From a virus, in UHGV virus genome UHGV-0057520: DNA of 30,871 nt; one strand, written 5' to 3'. Position 1 is the first letter of the stretch; each line of letters starts with the position of its first letter. Shown here piece after piece: positions 3,390-30,162 of the stretch. The notes beneath the pieces are model-generated. The model was given only the letters and a program-made list of their open reading frames with translations. It was not told the origin of the DNA and did not search any database. The translations under genes and the position numbers were made by a program.

Positions 3390-4266
3390 GTTAGCTGATT
3401 ACAGGCATAACCCTGTACAACATCAGGAGGCATCCAGTATGGGGTATGTCTCTATACACCGCCAGTTTATGGACAGCAGGCTCTATAAGGACTCTCAGGC
3501 AGTACATCTTTGGCTTCACTTAATTCTCAAGGCTAATCACGAATCTACTGTCGTCAATACGGATATCGGGCCGATAACTGTTGATCGCGGTCAGATGATA
3601 ACTGGACGCCCGTCGCTGGTCAGAGAAACATTCATCCCCGACAACAAAGTTCGGAGCTTATTACGGACTTTTGAGTCGAAAGGGATGCTTAATATTTGCT
3701 CGATGGGGAAGAAATTTAGCCTGTTTACAATCGTTAAATATGACGATTTTCAGGCAAAAAATTGTCCAACGGTTGTCCAACGGTTGTCCAACGCAAACAC
3801 CAGTAATGGCGCGGCTCTCAGCGGAGATTGTCCAACGGTTGTCCAACAGTTGTCCATAAACAATAATATAAATAATATCTCTAATACTGACGTATTAGAG
3901 AGTGCCACAGCAGACAAAAAGTCTGACAAGAAAAAACCTTCCGTTAGCTGTCAGGATGTTGTCGATGCTTACCACGAAATCCTTCCTGAAGCGCCAAGAA
4001 TCCGCGCACTGAATGACAAGCGTAAAAACCAGATCCGAACGTTCTGGCGCAAAGCCGGAGTGATAACCCGCCAGCTTGACGGGCATGGGTTCACGATGCA
4101 GGACTGGAGAAATTATTTGAGCTACGTAGGCGAAAATTGCCGATGGATGTTCGAAGAACGCCCAAACCATCAACGCGGAACCGTCTGGCACAAAAAGGGA
4201 TTTGATTTCCTGCTTAACGACAATACCTACCTGAAAGTTCGTGAGGGTGAACACGATGACCGATAA
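3376..4266 (+). CDS. replication initiation protein (lambda O / P22 gene 18 analogue)
   Basis: 296 aa directly upstream of the helicase gene; contains the origin iteron array inside its coding sequence, as lambda O does; AGGAG ribosome-binding site before 3376. Confidence 0.7.
   Translation: MGVVKLADYRHNPVQHQEASSMGYVSIHRQFMDSRLYKDSQAVHLWLHLILKANHESTVVNTDIGPITVDRGQMITGRPSLVRETFIPDNKVRSLLRTFESKGMLNICSMGKKFSLFTIVKYDDFQAKNCPTVVQRLSNANTSNGAALSGDCPTVVQQLSINNNINNISNTDVLESATADKKSDKKKPSVSCQDVVDAYHEILPEAPRIRALNDKRKNQIRTFWRKAGVITRQLDGHGFTMQDWRNYLSYVGENCRWMFEERPNHQRGTVWHKKGFDFLLNDNTYLKVREGEHDDR
3762..3900 (+). repeat. replication origin: six direct iterons (TTGTCCAACGG-like) plus adjacent AT-rich segment
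   Basis: Copies at 3762, 3773, 3784, 3827, 3838 and 3849 (last truncated), followed by AAACAATAATATAAATAATATCTCTAATACT; translated as the repeated CPTVVQRLSN peptide. Confidence 0.7.
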
Positions 4267-5692
4267 TTTTTATGCGCCGCCCCATAGCATCGAGGCAGAG
4301 CAGGCGGTGATTGGTGGATTGCTTCTGGATGATGACAGCAGTGAGCGCGTCCAGAAAGTTCTGGCGATGCTGAAGCCTGATTCATTTTACAGCCGACCAC
4401 ACAAAATCCTTTTCGAAGAAATAACCAGAATGCACCGGGAGCAAAAGCCAGTAGATGGCCTGACGCTTTTCGATGAACTGGAGCGTAAATCGTTAACGGC
4501 GTCTGTTGGCGGTTTTGCTTATATCGCTGAGATCGCAAAGAACACGCCAAGCGCAGCAAACATCGTTGCCTATGCAATGCAGGTTCGCGAAACCGCAATG
4601 GAACGCTATGCCATCAACCGCATGACTGAAGCGACGGAATTGCTCTATTCCCGCAACGGAATGACTGCAACGCAGAAGTACGAAGCTATTCAGGCGATTT
4701 TCACGCAACTGACAGACCATGCAAAAACCGGATCGCGTCGCGGCCTTCGCTCATTTGGTGAGGTCATGGAAGACTGGGTTAGCGACCTTGAGAAGCGATT
4801 TGACCCGTCAGGCGAACAACGAGGAATGAGCACAGGGATCCCATCTCTGGACAGGATGCTGTCACCGAAAGGTCTGGTGAAAGGCTCTCTGTTCGTCATT
4901 GGCGCTCGCCCTAAGATGGGGAAAACGACGCTATACAGCCAGATGGCAATCAACTGCGCAGTGCATGAGAAAAAGCCCGCTCTGATGTTCAGCCTTGAAA
5001 TGCCAGGTGATCAGATACTTGAAAAACTGGTAGGACAGAAGTCAGGTGTTAACCCAAATATTTTTTACCTTCCGGCGACAAATGACGCCGATGACGGCTA
5101 TCAGGGTGATTACGATGGTGACTTCAACAGGGCGATCGAAACAGCTAATCGCTTGAGTGAAATCGACATGCTTTACATCGACGACACGCCGGGATTATCT
5201 CTGGCTCAAATCGTCAGCGAAAGCCGTCGAATCAAGCGAGAAAAAGGATGTGTTGGCATGATTCTGGTCGATTACCTGACACTAATGACCGCTGAGAAGG
5301 CCGATCGCAACGACCTTGCTTACGGCATGATCACCAAAGGACTGAAGAACCTTGCCAAAGAGCTTGATTGCGTTGTTGCGCTTCTGACGCAGCTTAACCG
5401 CGCATTGGAAAGCCGAACCAATAAACGCCCATTACCAAGTGACTCGCGCGATACAGGACAGATTGAACAGGATTGCGATTATTGGGTGGGGATCCATCGT
5501 GAAGGTGCTTTTGATGACAGTGTTCCACCTGGTGAAACCGAACTAATCCTTCGTCTCAATCGTCATGGCAATACCGGCACGGTGTATTGCATTCAGGCAA
5601 ATGGCGCTATTTATGACACAGACCAACAGTCTGCTGAAATGCGCCGCCGTGAACGCGAGGAACCGCAGTCCAAGAAGAAAGGAGGATTCTGA
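4256..5692 (+). CDS. DnaB-family replicative helicase (P22 gene 12 analogue)
   Basis: ORF track starts on GTG at 4241; ATG at 4256 with GAGGGTG upstream; DnaB-like N-terminus (HSIEAEQAVIGGLLLD) and Walker A (GARPKMGKTT). Confidence 0.85.
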   Translation: MTDNFYAPPHSIEAEQAVIGGLLLDDDSSERVQKVLAMLKPDSFYSRPHKILFEEITRMHREQKPVDGLTLFDELERKSLTASVGGFAYIAEIAKNTPSAANIVAYAMQVRETAMERYAINRMTEATELLYSRNGMTATQKYEAIQAIFTQLTDHAKTGSRRGLRSFGEVMEDWVSDLEKRFDPSGEQRGMSTGIPSLDRMLSPKGLVKGSLFVIGARPKMGKTTLYSQMAINCAVHEKKPALMFSLEMPGDQILEKLVGQKSGVNPNIFYLPATNDADDGYQGDYDGDFNRAIETANRLSEIDMLYIDDTPGLSLAQIVSESRRIKREKGCVGMILVDYLTLMTAEKADRNDLAYGMITKGLKNLAKELDCVVALLTQLNRALESRTNKRPLPSDSRDTGQIEQDCDYWVGIHREGAFDDSVPPGETELILRLNRHGNTGTVYCIQANGAIYDTDQQSAEMRRREREEPQSKKKGGF

Positions 5693-5996: not shown

Positions 5997-6006
5997 AGGA
6001 GTGAGC

Positions 6007-6192
6007 ATGAGTCGACGAAGTAGCTTTTTGGGGTTTGTAATATTCCTGTTCTGCACTGGTTACATCGTAATCTGGTCAATTTCGAACATTGACCGTGGCG
6101 GGGAATATCTCATTGTAATGTTCTTTCCTTTGTTTCTTGGGTGGTACGCCGCAAGGTTGCTGGAAGAATGGGGTTACAGGCATAAAAAATAA
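6007..6192 (+). CDS. small membrane protein, about 61 aa, two predicted helices
   Basis: ORF track starts on GTG at 6001; ATG at 6007 with AAGGAG upstream; hydrophobic stretches FLGFVIFLFCTGYIVIW and LIVMFFPLFLGWYAA. Confidence 0.45.
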   Translation: MSRRSSFLGFVIFLFCTGYIVIWSISNIDRGGEYLIVMFFPLFLGWYAARLLEEWGYRHKK

Positions 6193-6251
6193 AGGAGTGT
6201 TCAGTGACGCAAACCATTTTTTATTGGATTAAGAGCGAGTGGTAAGTACCG

Positions 6252-6434
6252 ATGGTAAATGCATTTATTTGTAGTTTATTTCTTGTCGCGATTTTTCATG
6301 GATTCCTTTTGATGATGAGTTTTGTTCTCTGGAATAATGGATATCGCATATTGGGAGTAGGTTTTGTTTTACGGTTTTCAGTTCTCTGCGCGTTGCTACC
6401 GATAATTATGGCGACTATCAAATATTATTGGTAA
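6252..6434 (+). CDS. small hydrophobic membrane protein, 60 aa, AT-rich
   Basis: Almost entirely hydrophobic (two helices); weak ribosome-binding site, so coding status is uncertain. Confidence 0.35.
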   Translation: MVNAFICSLFLVAIFHGFLLMMSFVLWNNGYRILGVGFVLRFSVLCALLPIIMATIKYYW

Positions 6435-6449
6435 CCCAAAAAATCATCG

Positions 6450-6818
6450 ATGGAGAGTGATATGGACGAATCAAGAAAGCAGTTTGAGGAATACGTTGCC
6501 AAAAAATTGAGATTACCATTCGAGATGATAACCGAGGCAAGAAATGGTGATAGGTACTTCGCATTTTCAAGCATGGATATTCGTCACTCCTTAAATGAGT
6601 GGTGGACTTTATGGCAGGCATCGCGAGCAGCTATTGAACTGGATATCGACTGGCCAGAATCGAATGACGACTTTTGGAAAGATGGTGAAGAAGGTGCTTA
6701 TGCGATGGGTTATGAGGATGGGCGTGACAAAACGGTAATTGCAGTAATGAAAGCTATCAGAGCCGCTGGAATTAAAGAGAAGAATTTCGATGAAGCAAAC
6801 AATCTTCCTCCGAAGTAA
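6450..6818 (+). CDS. hypothetical acidic protein (nin-region)
   Basis: ORF track start 6450; an alternative ATG at 6462 has a better GGAGAG ribosome-binding site; no family recognised. Confidence 0.45.
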   Translation: MESDMDESRKQFEEYVAKKLRLPFEMITEARNGDRYFAFSSMDIRHSLNEWWTLWQASRAAIELDIDWPESNDDFWKDGEEGAYAMGYEDGRDKTVIAVMKAIRAAGIKEKNFDEANNLPPK

Positions 6819-7200
6819 GCAACAACAGCAAGCCGCAATCAACGCCATCCTCGCAACACCACTCGATAAAGACAAGCCAGTTACCATCCGCATTACTGAC
6901 TACAAGCGCAACCTTGACCAGAACGCAAAATTTCACGCGATGCTGGCGGATATCGCACGTCAGGTTCAATGGTGCGGAAAATGGTTAAAACCGGAACAAT
7001 GGAAGGTTTTGTTGATCAGCGGTCATGCAGTGGCAACAAAACAGGAAGCTGATGTTTTGCCCGGGCTTGAAGGCGAATACGTCAACATTCGCGAAAGTAG
7101 CGCGCAGATGAGTGTGAAGCGTATGGCAAGTCTGATTGAGTACACGACAGCATGGGCTATTGGTCAGGGTGTCAGATTTACCGACAGGAGGTACGAATGA
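6790..7200 (+). CDS. ninB: NinB (Orf-family recombination mediator)
   Basis: 136 aa; [32 protein letters not shown] parallels lambda NinB (SLDQN...W.GRWL) as I recall it. Confidence 0.75.
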
Positions 7201-7373
7201 GACGACAGCGACGAAGTATCACCGACATCATCTGCGAAAACTGCAAATACCTTCCAACGAAACGCACCAGAAATAAACGCAAGCCAATCCCGAAAGAATC
7301 TGACGTAAAAACCTTCAACTACACGGCTCACCTGTGGGATATCCGGTGGCTAAGACATCGTGCGAGGAAATGA
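7197..7373 (+). CDS. small basic Cys-containing protein (NinD/NinE-like)
   Basis: ATG at 7197 overlaps the ninB stop (ATGA) with GGAGG upstream; 58 aa; the ORF track extends it upstream in the same frame from 7152. Confidence 0.4.
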
Positions 7374-7735
7374 CAATGGATTATTCACAGTTAAGTGATT
7401 TTGAAATTAACGTGGCGGTATTCGAAGCCATTCATAACGGATCACCGGATTACAAAGAAGGTGAGAATGGCGATATGGTGTTTGTCTCATTTGAGGGAGA
7501 CATTGTAAACGGAGACGCAGTTGAAGTAGAGGTTGAGCGCGGATCCTTTAACCCATGCGCAAACCCAGCAGACGCATGGCCGATTATTGAAAAATACAGG
7601 ATTAGCATTATCAATCTCGATGAAGACGAGTGGGGTGCACGCGGTGTGGCCTACTGTAAATCTAAGCGAGCTATACATGAAAATCCCCTCCGCGCCGCCA
7701 TGATTGTCTTTCTCATGATGCAGAGAATCCAATAA
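7370..7735 (+). CDS. hypothetical protein (nin-region)
   Basis: ATG at 7370 overlaps the previous stop, with GAGGAA upstream; acidic, about 121 aa; ORF track start 7334. Confidence 0.45.
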
Positions 7736-7920
7736 TGCTTAGCCCATCCCAATCCCTTCAATACCAGAAAGAAAGCGTCGAGCGAGCTTTAACGTGCGCT
7801 AACTGCGGTCAGAAGCTGCATGTGCTGGAAGTTCACGTGTGTGAGCGTTGTATATATGAATGCTTAAATATGGTGGAACATAATGAGAAATATAAGCAAC
7901 ATAGACGAATTAAGAAATAA
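7735..7920 (+). CDS. small Cys-rich protein (NinF-like zinc ribbon)
   Basis: 61 aa with a CxxC...CxxC pattern; its 3' end runs into the AT-rich HNH gene. Confidence 0.4.
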   Translation: MLSPSQSLQYQKESVERALTCANCGQKLHVLEVHVCERCIYECLNMVEHNEKYKQHRRIKK

Positions 7921-8389
7921 ATTATCATATGATGATGTTTTAGGTGTACTTAGATGGAAAGTGTCTCCTTCTAATAATGTTAAGGTTGGCAGTGTTGCTG
8001 GTTACATTAGGAGTGATGGTTATAGGATGTTAACTATCGATGGTGTAATTACTTATGCTCACCACGTTATATGGATGATAAATAATGGTGAGATTCCATT
8101 AGGGTATAAAATTGATCATATAAATGGAGTAAGGTCAGATAATAGGCTATCTAATCTTCGATTGGTTACACACCAACAGAATGCACAGAACCAAAAGAGA
8201 AAAATAACCAATTCGTCAGGAGTGACTGGAGTATATTTCAATAAAGAGAGATGTAAGTGGATTGCGAATATATGCGTAGATGGGCGCACCAAATATCTTG
8301 GAATATTTGCTAGCATCATTGACGCTATTGCAGAAAGGAAGAGGGCAGAAAAAGAACTGGGTTTTCATGAAAACCATGGCAGACCATAA
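7883..8389 (+). CDS. HNH homing endonuclease with AP2-like DNA-binding domain
   Basis: 168 aa; HNH motif IDHINGVRSDNRLSNLRLVTHQQNAQN; C-terminal SGVTGVYFNKERCKWIANICVDGRTKYLGIF resembles an AP2 domain; markedly AT-rich. Confidence 0.75.
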   Translation: MRNISNIDELRNKLSYDDVLGVLRWKVSPSNNVKVGSVAGYIRSDGYRMLTIDGVITYAHHVIWMINNGEIPLGYKIDHINGVRSDNRLSNLRLVTHQQNAQNQKRKITNSSGVTGVYFNKERCKWIANICVDGRTKYLGIFASIIDAIAERKRAEKELGFHENHGRP

Positions 8390-8442
8390 CTGCGCAGAAC
8401 TGATGAGCGATCCGAATAGCTCGATGCACGAGGAAGAAGACG

Positions 8443-8655
8443 ATGAGTGATTACCTGAAATGGTATCTCTGCCACCGCTGGTTAATTAAGTTTGCTGTAA
8501 AAGACTGGATGACAGCGGATGCCAACAAGCTTAAGCAAAGAAAGGACTATTACTACGCCAGAATGAAGGAAAACTACTGCTCAATTCGCACTCGCATATT
8601 TATTAAAAAAGACCTTCAGTCAATTCTTCAATTGCGAGGGAAGGTAAATGGCTAA
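8443..8655 (+). CDS. hypothetical protein, 70 aa
   Basis: ATG with GAGGAAGAAG upstream; no family recognised. Confidence 0.4.
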   Translation: MSDYLKWYLCHRWLIKFAVKDWMTADANKLKQRKDYYYARMKENYCSIRTRIFIKKDLQSILQLRGKVNG

Positions 8656-8938
8656 CCTACGCAAAGAAGCGCGCGGCAGAGAATGCCAGGTACGTATTTA
8701 CGGCGTATGCAATGGTAATCCTGAAACTACAGTTCTGGCACATTACCGGATGGCTGGAATTTGCGGAACGGGAATGAAGCCTGACGACCTGATCGGCGCA
8801 TGGGCTTGTAGCGCGTGTCACGATGAAATCGACCGACGCACCCATAATCTCGACAACAAAGACGCCAGACTTTACCACCTCGAAGGCGTGATCAGGACGC
8901 AGGCGATACTGCTGAAGGAGGGAAAGATTAAGCCATGA
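8648..8938 (+). CDS. ybcO: YbcO-like protein (DUF1364, putative nuclease of DLP12-type nin regions)
   Basis: RECQVRIYGVCNGNPETTVLAH...CSACHDEIDRRTH closely matches my recollection of E. coli YbcO. Confidence 0.7.
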   Translation: MANLRKEARGRECQVRIYGVCNGNPETTVLAHYRMAGICGTGMKPDDLIGAWACSACHDEIDRRTHNLDNKDARLYHLEGVIRTQAILLKEGKIKP

Positions 8939-9297
8939 ACGAATATCAGTTTGTGCTTCCATACCCGCCGTCGGTGAATACCTACTGGCGAAGACGAGGA
9001 AGCCAATACTACATCAGCGATAAAGGCCAGAAATACCGAAAAGACGTTCAGCAAATCATCCGCCAACTTAAGTTAGACATTTTCACCAAATCACGACTCC
9101 GCATCAAAGTAATCGCAGACGTTCCAGACTCCCGCCGCCGCGACCTCGATAACATCCTGAAAGGTTTACTCGACTCCCTTATCCACGCCGGATTTGCGGA
9201 AGACGACGAGCAATTCGATGACATTCGCGTAATTCGTGGTGTGAAAGTACCAGGCGGACGGCTTGGAATAAAAATCACCGAACTGGAGAACGTATGA
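8935..9297 (+). CDS. rusA: RusA-family Holliday junction resolvase
   Basis: 120 aa; LPYPPSVN, DSRRRDLDNILKGLLDSL and GGRLGIKITE motifs are typical of RusA. Confidence 0.85.
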   Translation: MNEYQFVLPYPPSVNTYWRRRGSQYYISDKGQKYRKDVQQIIRQLKLDIFTKSRLRIKVIADVPDSRRRDLDNILKGLLDSLIHAGFAEDDEQFDDIRVIRGVKVPGGRLGIKITELENV

Positions 9298-9482
9298 ACG
9301 CCACAATTCAAACGATACCAGAGCTTCTTATCCAGACACGAGGCAATCAGACCGAAGTGGCGAGGATGCTTTCCTGCGCAAGAGGAACAGTGCTCAAGTA
9401 CAACCGAGACAGCAAAGGTGAGCGTCACGTAATAGTTAACGGCGTCCTGATGGTCAAACAAGGCAAGAGGGGAAGACGATGA
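9294..9482 (+). CDS. NinH-like protein
   Basis: TIPELLIQTRGNQTEVARML.C.RGTV.KY parallels lambda NinH (TIPDMLVEAYGNQTEVARRLKCSRGTVRKY). Confidence 0.65.
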   Translation: MNATIQTIPELLIQTRGNQTEVARMLSCARGTVLKYNRDSKGERHVIVNGVLMVKQGKRGRR

Positions 9483-9997
9483 GCATAAGAGAACTAAACC
9501 TCACCAAAGAGCAGCACGAGTGGCTGAATGGCTGGCTTGAACTGTGGGGCGCATGGGTTTATTCAGGTCGTCTGGAAAAGCGCATGAGCAGCGTAATAGC
9601 GAAGTTCATGGAGAGCGTAGAGCCGGGAAGAGTTATGACAAGGCCAATGTGTAATGATGATGATGGAATGTTGATTTCTCAGGTCGTCGATTCCGTCATG
9701 TGCATTGACAAGAAAGCCTTTGGAATCCTCCTCAGCTACTACGCTCATGGTTCATCTAAGCGAGCAATTGCATCCTACTATCACGCGACTGCAAAGCCAC
9801 GCAAGATGTGTGGACGTGGTGGCGAGGGATGGAGAAAGCCTTCACTGGCAACCTGTAGAAACGAAATTGACGACATCCTGAAAGCGTCGTTATTTGTTTT
9901 GTACCAACCAATGCAAAATGCTTTCAAAATGCGTAAACGTGTTGAGAAAGTTAAGCATGTTGCTGTTAAAAGCCTTGACATGCAATTAGCCATTTAG
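9479..9997 (+). CDS. Q: late-gene antiterminator Q
   Basis: 172 aa, last gene before pR'; N-terminal WLELWGAWV motif resembles DLP12-type Q (QuuD) proteins; conserved position upstream of the lysis genes. Confidence 0.75.
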   Translation: MSIRELNLTKEQHEWLNGWLELWGAWVYSGRLEKRMSSVIAKFMESVEPGRVMTRPMCNDDDGMLISQVVDSVMCIDKKAFGILLSYYAHGSSKRAIASYYHATAKPRKMCGRGGEGWRKPSLATCRNEIDDILKASLFVLYQPMQNAFKMRKRVEKVKHVAVKSLDMQLAI

Positions 9998-10060: not shown

Positions 10061-10135
10061 GGGTCAGTCGTATAAAGGTCATTACGGAAGGCTGTTAACC
10101 TTCTTATCGTGGTTCGAGTCCACGCTGTCCCGCCA
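10061..10135 (+). tRNA. tRNA-like gene, anticodon GUU (Asn), non-canonical D-arm and one acceptor-stem mismatch
   Basis: Manual fold: acceptor 6 of 7 bp, perfect anticodon stem GAAGG/CCTTC with loop CTGTTAA, T-arm CGTGG-TTCGAGT-CCACG, 3' GCCA. Confidence 0.5.
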
Positions 10136-10140
10136 AATAT

Positions 10141-10216
10141 GCTGGTTTAGCTCCAATGGTAGAGCAGTCGCCTTGTAAGCGAATGGGTAGCGGTTCAAGT
10201 CCGTTAACCAGCACCA
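10141..10216 (+). tRNA. tRNA-Thr (anticodon UGU)
   Basis: Manual fold: perfect acceptor stem GCTGGTT/AACCAGC, D-arm GCTC-CAATGGTA-GAGC, anticodon loop CTTGTAA, T-loop TTCAAGT, discriminator A and CCA; 5 nt after the first tRNA. Confidence 0.7.
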
Positions 10217-28170: not shown

Positions 28171-30162
28171 ATGACAGACATTACAGCCAATGTTGTAGTG
28201 AGCATGCCTTCGCAACTCTTCACTATGGCGCGTTCTTTTAAAGCCGTAGCTAATGGCAAAATTTATATCGGTAAAATTGACACTGACCCGGTAAATCCTG
28301 ATAACCAGATTCAGGTCTATGTTGAGAACGAAGATGGTTCTCACGTTCCTGTTGCACAGCCAATCGTCATCAATGCCGCTGGGTATCCAGTATATAACGG
28401 ACAGATTGCCAAATTCGTAACTGTGCAAGGCCATTCTATGGCTGTTTATGATGCATGTGGTGCGCAGCAGTTCTATTTTCCAAATGTGCTGAAGTATGAC
28501 CCGGATCAGTTAAGGCAGGAGTTAGCAAGTTCAGGTGATGATCTTGGAGATGCATTAATAGCAGTAAAACAACCATTCACCTTGTCAATAAGAAGGACGC
28601 AGCATCAAAAAAATGCCGAGCACATTAGTGTTAGTGATTTTGGTGCAAAAGGAGACGGCATAACAGATGATACTGTAGCAATTCAAAATGCTATTAATGC
28701 AGTACCAGAAGGGGCTATACTTGGATTTTATGGTGGTGAATTTGTTTTTGATAAGGTTGAATTGCTTAAGCCAATAACATTGGTTGGTGATGCAACGTTA
28801 ATTCACAACGGATTTAGAATAAAATCTAGCAGAATACGATCACTTTTATCTGGTGTTCAGAAATGCAAGGATTACTCCGAGTCTTCAAGAGCATTTTATT
28901 GCTATGCAAATGAAGACCAAAGAGATTATGACGATATTCAGATTTTGTTTAATAGATTTGAAGGTTTCTTTTACTCTACGACATTTGTTGCAAAAAACTA
29001 TTATTTGGAGAATGACCCTAATTCAAGAACTGTCAAAAATACAAAAGTAATAGGATGTACATCAGTTGCTCCTGATTCTGTAAATGCCGGTCATTTTCAA
29101 CATATAGGCGTTACAAATGCTGAAACATCACATAACTCAACTTATGGCGGACAAAATGCAACATCATACAACTTCATTAACCAGAATGGATTTGTAAGGA
29201 TTATAGGAAATTATGACCATAACAATAACTATGGTTCATGTGAGCTTGAGAACTCAATGGTGAGTAACTCAGTCATATCATGTAATACGTTTTCGTCATA
29301 TTTATGGGTGGATGATACAAGCAATGTTACTATTTCTGGAAATACAGTTTCATCAAGGATCAAAGTAACATCGCAAACTGACGATGTTCATAATATAACC
29401 ATATCAGCAAATACCACAAAACGGATTACTATAGAGCAATTTGGAGAATCTCCGACAGGTCTGGTATATGGTGCATTAATTTCCTGTAACACTATTACTG
29501 GCGACAGTGATGGAAGTTCAGACATTTTATGTACGTCACTTGTTACAGGTGAAATTTCATCAAATTATTGTCATGGATCAGAAAAAAATATATCAATTGT
29601 CCGCCTGGATTCTTCTGATATAACTGTTAGAAACAATAAAGGAAACAAAGGATTACTTACAATAAGTAACGATGGTGGGAGGATAATTGAATATGGCAAT
29701 GATTCTATGGTTCTGTCTGGAAGCATAGATAGCAGACATATACATAATTTATTACAACCAGACACATCGTATTTAGATCTACCGGGGAAATATCTGCACG
29801 GAACTAAATATACTGGCAGTATCCCCCCCGGTTCCACAGGAACTGTATCACTTCAAATACCATCAGGGGCAAGCCTTGTTTTCAGGGGTGTTTCTATATG
29901 GGTTCTAATTAGAGATGTTAGCAATAACAATATATCGTCATTCAGAATTGATGGTTCATATAGAGTTGTTGGTGGAAGTGTTGGTCTTAGTTTTGCTGAT
30001 GCTTATTCGAAACTCGGGGTGGATGCAAACTCTATAACAGTGTCAAACAATAACAGCACTTCTGACAATATCAGCATAGCAATTAAAAACACAGATTCAT
30101 CAAAAACCCTTCAGGTTACTGTTATGCCGGAGGTTTCAAGCAGGTTAGGTATTGAGGAATAG
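28171..30162 (+). CDS. tailspike: P22-type head-binding N-terminal domain fused to a different, AT-rich receptor-binding domain
   Basis: 663 aa; first ~110 residues ([11 protein letters not shown]...[20 protein letters not shown]...VLKYDPDQ) match P22 gp9; the rest carries beta-helix/pectate-lyase-like signatures ([18 protein letters not shown]) and is Asn/Ser-rich. Confidence 0.85.

Follow-up and report, generated by a model that had tools for sequence, protein, structure and literature searches.

The viral genome UHGV-0057520, analysed here as one stretch of 30,871 nucleotides (the window), carries within its ninF gene a 539-bp cassette that encodes a predicted HNH-AP2 endonuclease. We consider it quite probable that the cassette is a free-standing homing endonuclease gene (HEG) that was copied into the dispensable ninF gene, part of the delayed-early nin operon of a P22-like lambdoid phage, with site-specific cleavage of ninF by the encoded enzyme (homing itself) as the presumed activity. 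A preliminary description of this DNA had placed an AT-rich HNH/AP2 homing endonuclease gene between small Nin-like genes and had suggested that the insertion may have truncated the gene upstream. A 168-amino-acid open reading frame (ORF) is present exactly where that description put it, at 7883..8389 on the plus strand; comparison with uninterrupted alleles, though, locates it inside the ninF coding sequence and not between nin genes.

The insert was delimited by comparison with phage vB_EcoP-720R6, the best match to the window, in which the flanks are 99.6% identical, the sequence is 539 bp shorter and ninF is an intact gene of 58 codons. The empty allele of 720R6 reads ...GTG TGC TCC GAT TGC/TGC GCA GAA CTG... 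(the slash here and below marks the insertion point) and the window reads ...GTG TGT GAG CGT TGT(7852-8390)TGC GCA GAA CTG..., which places the insertion between adjacent Cys codons of ...HVCxxC/CAELM.... Junctions were placed by visual inspection together with exact string matches, and the boundary is ambiguous by 1 nt at the right and by up to ~10 nt at the left. The 5' part of ninF is collinear with the intact gene of 720R6 (L001:1936-2112) and matches Pfam NinF over the whole profile (positions 1-25 of 25, E 6e-12), while the upstream Cys-rich ORF in which it lies (7735..7920) matches phrog_672 (NinF) over positions 1-44 of 58 only. Since 539 is not a multiple of 3, this 5' part runs beyond the junction into 22 new codons and stops at 7918-7920. 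The reported overlap of the HNH start with the preceding Cys-rich ORF was confirmed and amounts to 38 nt.

The native end of ninF is found on the other side of the cassette. When positions 7850-8450 were compared by blastn with 50,697 phage records, matches were confined to 8390-8450, a segment that corresponds to the 3'-terminal part of ninF as annotated in more than 200 of these records (96.7% identity). The suggested truncation of the upstream gene therefore stands as far as its 3' end is altered, but the last 19 codons and the stop persist at 8391-8450 in a different frame. The conserved C-terminal GFHENHG motif of the endonuclease (8367-8390) forces two ATG codons in the frame of this remnant (MKTMADHN/CAELM...), and these could in principle allow translation of the 19-codon NinF tail as a small peptide. 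PGAP gives the name NinF to an ORF of this kind, and the 3' remnant appears as a second 'protein NinF' in RefSeq genomes.

The preliminary description had proposed a search among related phages for an uninterrupted allele. Such alleles are present in 720R6, in at least 121 IMG/VR loci and in 1187 of 5426 complete Escherichia coli genomes, so that relatives are not uniformly filled and the view of the gene as a mobile insertion of foreign composition is upheld. The insert was found in 44 of the same E. coli genomes; intact ninF is thus ~27 times commoner than the interrupted form, and the element is carried by ~3.6% of ninF-bearing E. coli genomes. Both the IMG/VR and the E. coli samples include related strains, and these counts are not numbers of independent events.

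Filled copies were read from four E. coli chromosomes, 29 IMG/VR loci and the window (n = 34). The left junction is identical in all 34 and the right junction in all 33 that include it; among the 33 copies with both junctions the insert measures 539 bp in 32 and 540 bp in one. The inserts differ from one another at 0-4 positions (nucleotide diversity, pi, 0.0048), and the HNH ORF is intact in 33 of the 34. Beyond ~60 nt from the site the filled loci are mutually unrelated (p-distance 0.6-0.7), as are the empty loci. They fall into 13 upstream and 9 downstream clusters that occur in 19 combinations, nine of them shared with empty alleles. The E. coli chromosomes show four annotated architectures, with NinX or NinE upstream of the insert and with a hypothetical gene, a KilAC antirepressor, NinG or another hypothetical gene downstream. 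All recipients have ninF (~177 bp) in common and no other sequence, so the target is expected to lie within it.

At the DNA level the insert is absent from the 50,697 isolated-phage records, in which no phage protein is more than 60% identical to its product, and the species-representative genomes of GTDB contain no match to the junction pattern or to the protein. The exact protein occurs on at least 1000 public contigs of E. coli and E. albertii, where it is named 'HNH endonuclease'; some partial copies at NCBI are labelled 'serine/threonine protein phosphatase, partial', evidently a propagated misannotation. A divergent copy was found on a short metagenomic contig (Logan SRR25288770, L158:1-909), with 85% identity at the protein level and 81% at the DNA level. 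It is inserted at the same point (TGT/ATATATG) of a divergent ninF (IHVCEKC), with ybcO directly after. In this copy a 27-nt deletion has removed the HNH stop together with the ninF codons HNCAELMS, and the HNH ORF is fused into the remnant to give 176 amino acids. The new C-terminal tail that the insert adds to the interrupted ninF ORF is not conserved there, the divergent copy having IYVLLNAGDDHEDNN instead, and the place of the Shine-Dalgarno-like sequence is taken by AGGAG. The association of the HEG with ninF is older than the near-clonal E. coli copies.

The DNA immediately 5' of the insertion point differs between filled and empty alleles in a manner that resembles co-conversion. All 34 filled alleles contain the sequence GAGCGTTGT, which none of the 121 empty alleles among the matches listed has, and the patch it covers at the junction may represent a co-converted donor flank or substitutions that confer immunity. 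Within the 10 nt to the left of the site, pi is 0.000 in filled and 0.327 in empty alleles, a contrast that is partly built in, as the first pattern used to collect empty sites fixed bases around the site. Resampling with an anchor 56-81 nt upstream yielded 97 empty alleles, in which the dimorphic patch described below persisted. Between the window and 720R6, nine differences lie in the 47 nt from -10 to +37, against four in ~2200 nt of further flank, and seven of the nine fall within the 7842..7851 patch. One rare haplotype, with T at -13, exists in a filled and an empty form that share their right flank and the gene downstream, and the sole difference within that pair is CAC>CGT beside the site. 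Such clustered differences would fit break-induced repair with short conversion tracts, in the manner of a co-conversion tract. Haplotype linkage is weakly informative on the number of independent invasions, since ninF has recombined even among empty alleles.

The empty alleles are themselves dimorphic at this place. Across the 97 resampled alleles, pi reaches 0.44-0.58 at positions -10 to -4, compared with an average of ~0.06 elsewhere in ninF; the patch adjoins the 5' side of the insertion point and is equivalent to 7842-7848 of the window (loci L037-L194). About two-thirds of the alleles read TGT GAG CAC and about one-third TGC TCC GAT, a dimorphism that includes a synonymous change of the Cys codon, and GAA GCG, GAT CAC and GAG TAC are rarer variants. 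The corresponding allele types of empty ninF are CEHC (GAGCACTGC/TGC) and CSDC (TCCGATTGC/TGC), with CEAC in addition. It is conceivable, though we hold it doubtful, that the patch is the footprint of an arms race in which one allele class would be a cleavage-resistant escape variant under selection at the DNA level; if so, the resistant class would explain the rarity of the HEG (~4%) in E. coli lambdoid prophages. Alternatively, the patch could reflect a long-standing polymorphism, at the level of the protein, in an exposed zinc-knuckle loop.

The nuclease assignment made in the preliminary description is well supported by domain searches. The protein matches Pfam HNH_3 (PF13392) over residues 58-102 with 70.1 bits against a cut-off of 24.8 (E 1.2e-19, model positions 2-46 of 46) and phrog_99 'HNH endonuclease' with E 3e-70, and HNH_3 is matched by all 65 aligned homologues. 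Residues D78, N91 and N103 are invariant and H79 and N100 at least 90% conserved among 64 homologues, and these residues align with the DH...N...N active-site segment of I-HmuI. The roles of the D-H general-base pair and of the downstream Asn residues are reportedly those described in the I-HmuI structure paper.

The AP2 assignment fared differently according to the method used. As a Pfam match on this sequence alone it fails, PF00847 scoring 15.4-16.9 bits against a gathering score of 33.3 (E 0.008-0.024). The same model is matched by 20 of the 65 homologues at E<=1e-3 (best 3e-8), and positions 111-160 of the family profile match plant AP2 domains (WRI1, E 1e-5; TEM1, E 2.5e-4). In the AlphaFold2 model (mean predicted local distance difference test score 90.4) the C-terminal part is composed of strands 117-120, 125-132 and 135-142 followed by a helix at 145-159. 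This sheet and helix superpose on the AP2 domain of TEM1 with a root-mean-square deviation of 1.2 Å (probability 1.0), and AtERF1 (probability 0.99) and a Plasmodium AP2 domain also superpose. On the family profile and the predicted structure together, we accept an AP2 fold for the C-terminal part.

The ratio of non-synonymous to synonymous substitution (dN/dS) between the ORF of the window and the divergent copy is 0.07, with dS 1.2, and single-nucleotide polymorphisms (SNPs) of the ORF within the E. coli population comprise 13 synonymous and 8 non-synonymous changes. These values indicate that the ORF is under purifying selection and, with the conserved D78/H79 pair and Asn residues, suggest that the protein has been kept functional. 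RefSeq/PGAP describes the gene in strains B7A (L004:4184-4690) and E2348/69 (L005, ~4115-4621) as a 150-bp pseudogene fragment, 'missing C-terminus'. Decay of the HEG was considered on this account and rejected: the 168-codon ORF is intact in both strains, with 1-2 synonymous differences from the window, and the pseudogene annotation is due to the choice of the overlapping ninF-remnant ORF in place of the HNH gene.

A sequence of events can be proposed on this basis. The HEG would rely on pR, as the rest of the operon does, for its transcription and on its own Shine-Dalgarno sequence for translation. When a phage or prophage with the filled allele shares a cell with a lambdoid genome that has intact ninF, the AP2 and N-terminal parts of the enzyme would bind the DNA of the empty allele, which would be nicked or cut within ninF near the CxxC/C codons. 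Free-standing HNH enzymes are known to nick and to home in T4, and MobA, MobE and I-HmuI are nickases (PMC2988022). Phage or host recombination would then repair the break from the filled allele, copying the cassette with a short donor flank of ~10 nt at the left and a variable short stretch at the right. The filled allele would be immune to the enzyme, because its site is split and carries 2-3 substitutions beside the junction.

Insertion at this place is probably tolerated because ninF is non-essential and because the cassette, co-oriented and without a terminator, is not expected to be polar on the essential gene Q. In lambda, ninF is non-essential once Q is supplied (PMC10695390), and its function is not known (PMC3224144). 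No promoter or terminator was found in the cassette above shuffled controls. A weak hairpin at 7831-7861 (GTTCAC-GTGT-GTGAGC) in ninF, with a T-rich tail created by the junction, has a terminator-like score, but it is no better than shuffled sequence (1 found against a mean of 0.7).

Several points weigh against this interpretation. The activity of the enzyme and its target are both inferred. ninF is conserved and heavily recombined and lies in mosaic contexts even when empty; the occurrence of many contexts with low diversity is therefore not specific to a HEG, and ordinary lambdoid mosaic recombination could account for part of the contexts. The element is also rare, with ~3.6% of ninF-bearing E. 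coli genomes, 0 of 50,697 isolated-phage records and no GTDB representative, which is unlike an unopposed and efficient drive. Lastly, the cut made by a free-standing HEG often falls at a distance from the place of insertion (PMC2988022), and the position near the CxxC/C codons is a putative one. Much of this is also what recommends an account in which the cassette entered ninF once, as a passive passenger, and was then shuffled by ordinary homologous recombination through the conserved ninF flanks, its nuclease not driving the spread and perhaps being inactive or cutting something else. Empty ninF is likewise a conserved ~177-bp module whose many contexts are unrelated and whose internal SNP haplotypes are shuffled, and rarity and absence from isolated phages agree with such an origin. 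We judge it unlikely all the same. Purifying selection (dN/dS 0.07; 33 of 34 ORFs intact) is not expected of a useless passenger, the catalytic residues are conserved, and the exchange points lie within 10-37 nt of the insert in the near-isogenic pair and within 13 nt in the rare-haplotype pair. Exchanges so close to the insert fit break-stimulated short-tract conversion and are improbable for unstimulated crossovers.

Purifying selection would equally be expected if the nuclease were domesticated and served the phage, by excluding competitors at ninF or by stimulating recombination or replication, with self-copying as a side effect. The operon is rich in recombination functions (NinB/Orf, YbcO, RusA), and in T-even phages HEGs are known to cause marker exclusion (PMC2988022). 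The data do not separate such a benefit from plain homing, but occupation of a single exact site, alongside empty alleles, is what a selfish element classically shows, and the low frequency speaks against a strong benefit to the phage, which leaves this explanation with a very small share of our confidence. A self-splicing insert, either a group I or II intron with an HNH ORF or an intein, from which intact NinF would still be produced, was entertained since HNH-AP2/IENR1 enzymes are often intron-encoded (PMC2248197) and the closest solved structure, I-HmuI, is intron-encoded. We regard it as exceedingly improbable. No Rfam family matches at E<=1 within 7400-8900, and 32 of the 539 nt lie outside the ORF (31 before and 1 after), which leaves no room for an intron core; an intein is rejected on the length of the insert, which is not divisible by 3, and on the stop of the ninF frame at 7918-7920. 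Neither terminal inverted repeats nor direct repeats nor a target-site duplication were found at the boundaries, and an insertion sequence or transposon was rejected on the lack of inverted repeats and target duplication and on the HNH gene being the sole ORF. We therefore retain homing into ninF as the preferred explanation.

The best match in the PDB by sequence profile is I-HmuI of Bacillus phage SPO1 (1u3e, E 7e-10), which is also the best fold match to the whole protein (Foldseek E 4e-4, probability 1.0), albeit with a TM-score of just 0.45. The N-terminal beta region and the HNH core align with I-HmuI, the DH...N...N residues included. I-HmuI lies within a group I intron, whereas the ninF insert has no intron. 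According to its structure paper, the C-terminal module of I-HmuI is reportedly a helix-turn-helix and not AP2.

Parallels are also provided by the free-standing HNN/HNH-AP2 genes of phages, named in a passage of PMC2248197 that cites Magnani et al. 2004 for Xanthomonas phages Xp10, OP1 and Xop411 and coliphages T1, Rtp, T5 and RB16/RB43. Like these, the ninF insert is free-standing and encodes ~170 amino acids with an HNH_3 core lacking Cys dyads and a C-terminal AP2 fold, and it is AT-rich relative to the host phage and present or absent between related genomes. Homologues occur in 3805 phage records; the nearest named phage relatives, ~50% identical, are from Klebsiella T1-like phages and, as P0005, from Klebsiella phage cp17, where the gene lies beside a primase gene. 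The other genes of this type are intergenic, and for the Xoo phages no conserved flanks were found (PMC2248197), in contrast to the one precise intragenic site and well-defined empty allele of the ninF insert.

In its arrangement the ninF insert recalls MobA and MobE of T4, free-standing HNH HEGs that depend on upstream operon promoters and have ORFs overlapping the upstream gene (PMC2988022). In Aeh1 nrdA::mobE and T4 gene 39/60::mobA the HEG splits a coding sequence, and there the genes are essential and the halves reassemble (PMC2988022). The ninF insert shares with them a free-standing HNH gene inside a coding sequence. It differs in that ninF is dispensable, with reassembly neither needed nor indicated, in that the 3' piece is an acidic tail of 19 codons for which no start is evident besides the ATGs in the HNH 3' end, and in that the host is a temperate lambdoid phage and not a T-even phage.

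The insert thus joins the known class of free-standing HNH-AP2 genes with ninF as a presumed target that was not described before, and it is not a new kind of system. No paper linking ninF to an HNH or homing endonuclease was found in the literature, although RefSeq already annotates an HNH endonuclease between two 'NinF' coding sequences (CDSs). What it adds is a presumed natural homing site that is well defined, is represented by many alleles of both the filled and the empty kind, and comes with a near-isogenic pair of phages. Few such cases are available in temperate lambdoid phages, homing being known mainly from T-even and SPO1-like lytic phages, and E. coli would offer a simple system for homing and co-conversion between prophages and superinfecting phages. 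The same system is suited to asking whether target-site polymorphism limits a HEG and what DNA specificity a bacterial AP2 domain has. It also accounts for a recurrent annotation problem, in which an intact HNH gene stands between two 'NinF' CDSs and is at times miscalled a pseudogene.

A paralogous HNH-AP2 gene is present between ybcO (DUF1364) and rusA in some lambdoid prophages (Ecol_276 L002:5235-5759, WP_044342108.1). Its product is 40% identical over 164 amino acids (E 2e-37), and the gene has the same operon and orientation but is intergenic. The ybcO/rusA site is empty in the window, where the two genes overlap at 8935-8938. With the paralogue at one site and the ninF insert at another, the nin operon hosts at least two HEG lineages.

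Coordinates in the window of the cassette, the parts of ninF and the adjoining gene
Feature	Position	Strand	Basis or remark
ninF 5' portion, native codons 1-39, with complete CxxC...CxxC zinc-ribbon core	7735..7851	+	Pfam NinF; collinearity with 720R6
Junction patch T GAG CGT TGT (C-E-R-C)	7842..7851	+	invariant in HEG-bearing alleles; lacking from empty alleles
Inserted cassette, 539 bp	7852..8390	+	window against empty allele; 31-nt leader, 507-nt ORF and 1 nt
New insert-encoded C-terminal tail of interrupted ninF ORF (IYECLNMVEHNEKYKQHRRIKK, then stop)	7852..7920	+	ORF 7735..7920
Shine-Dalgarno-like GGTGGA, 4 nt 5' of HNH ATG	7873..7878	+	by sequence
HNH-AP2 homing endonuclease gene (predicted)	7883..8389	+	168 amino acids; sequence identical to RefSeq WP_001244575.1
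HNH (beta-beta-alpha-metal) nuclease core, residues 58-102	8054..8188	+	Pfam HNH_3
AP2-type DNA-binding domain (predicted), residues 112-160	8216..8362	+	family profile and structure; Pfam sub-threshold
ninF 3' remnant, last 19 codons and stop (CAELMSDPNSSMHEEEDDE)	8391..8450	+	other frame than 5' part; within ORF 8280..8450
Downstream nin gene phrog_3973 (context, outside element)	8443..8655	+	ATG overlaps ninF stop

The nin-region location given in the preliminary description is correct. Upstream of the insert are NinB (6790-7200), NinE (7152-7373), NinX (7334-7735) and NinF (from 7735), and 3' of it are phrog_3973, YbcO (8648-8938), RusA (8935-9297), NinH (9294-9482) and Q (9479-9997), a gene order typical of the lambdoid nin region. 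The window as a whole represents an E. coli phage or prophage of the P22-like kind (Lederbergvirus). The low GC content noted for the gene also holds: the GC fraction is 0.357 in the ORF and 0.351 in the whole insert, against 0.470 in the window and 0.479 in the rest of the nin region. Values as low as that of the insert were obtained for 73 of 3034 segments of 539 bp (2.4%), mainly in the tailspike gene and at the left end of the window.

Compositional outliers elsewhere in the window include a stretch at 6000-6600 (0.37-0.40), between the helicase gene and the nin genes, which is not alignable with 720R6. It contains small, hydrophobic-looking ORFs at 6001-6192 and 6252-6434, and a PHROG search with the latter gave no match. 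The lowest GC in the window (0.335-0.37) is at 28801-30000, in the receptor-binding part of the tailspike (phrog_20231, ORF 28171-30162); this part sits 3' of the conserved P22-type N-terminal head-binding domain and is typical of a horizontally exchanged module. Directly 3' of Q are a tRNA-Asn(GTT) at 10061-10135 and a tRNA-Thr(TGT) at 10141-10216, which are annotated likewise in vB_EcoP-720R6.

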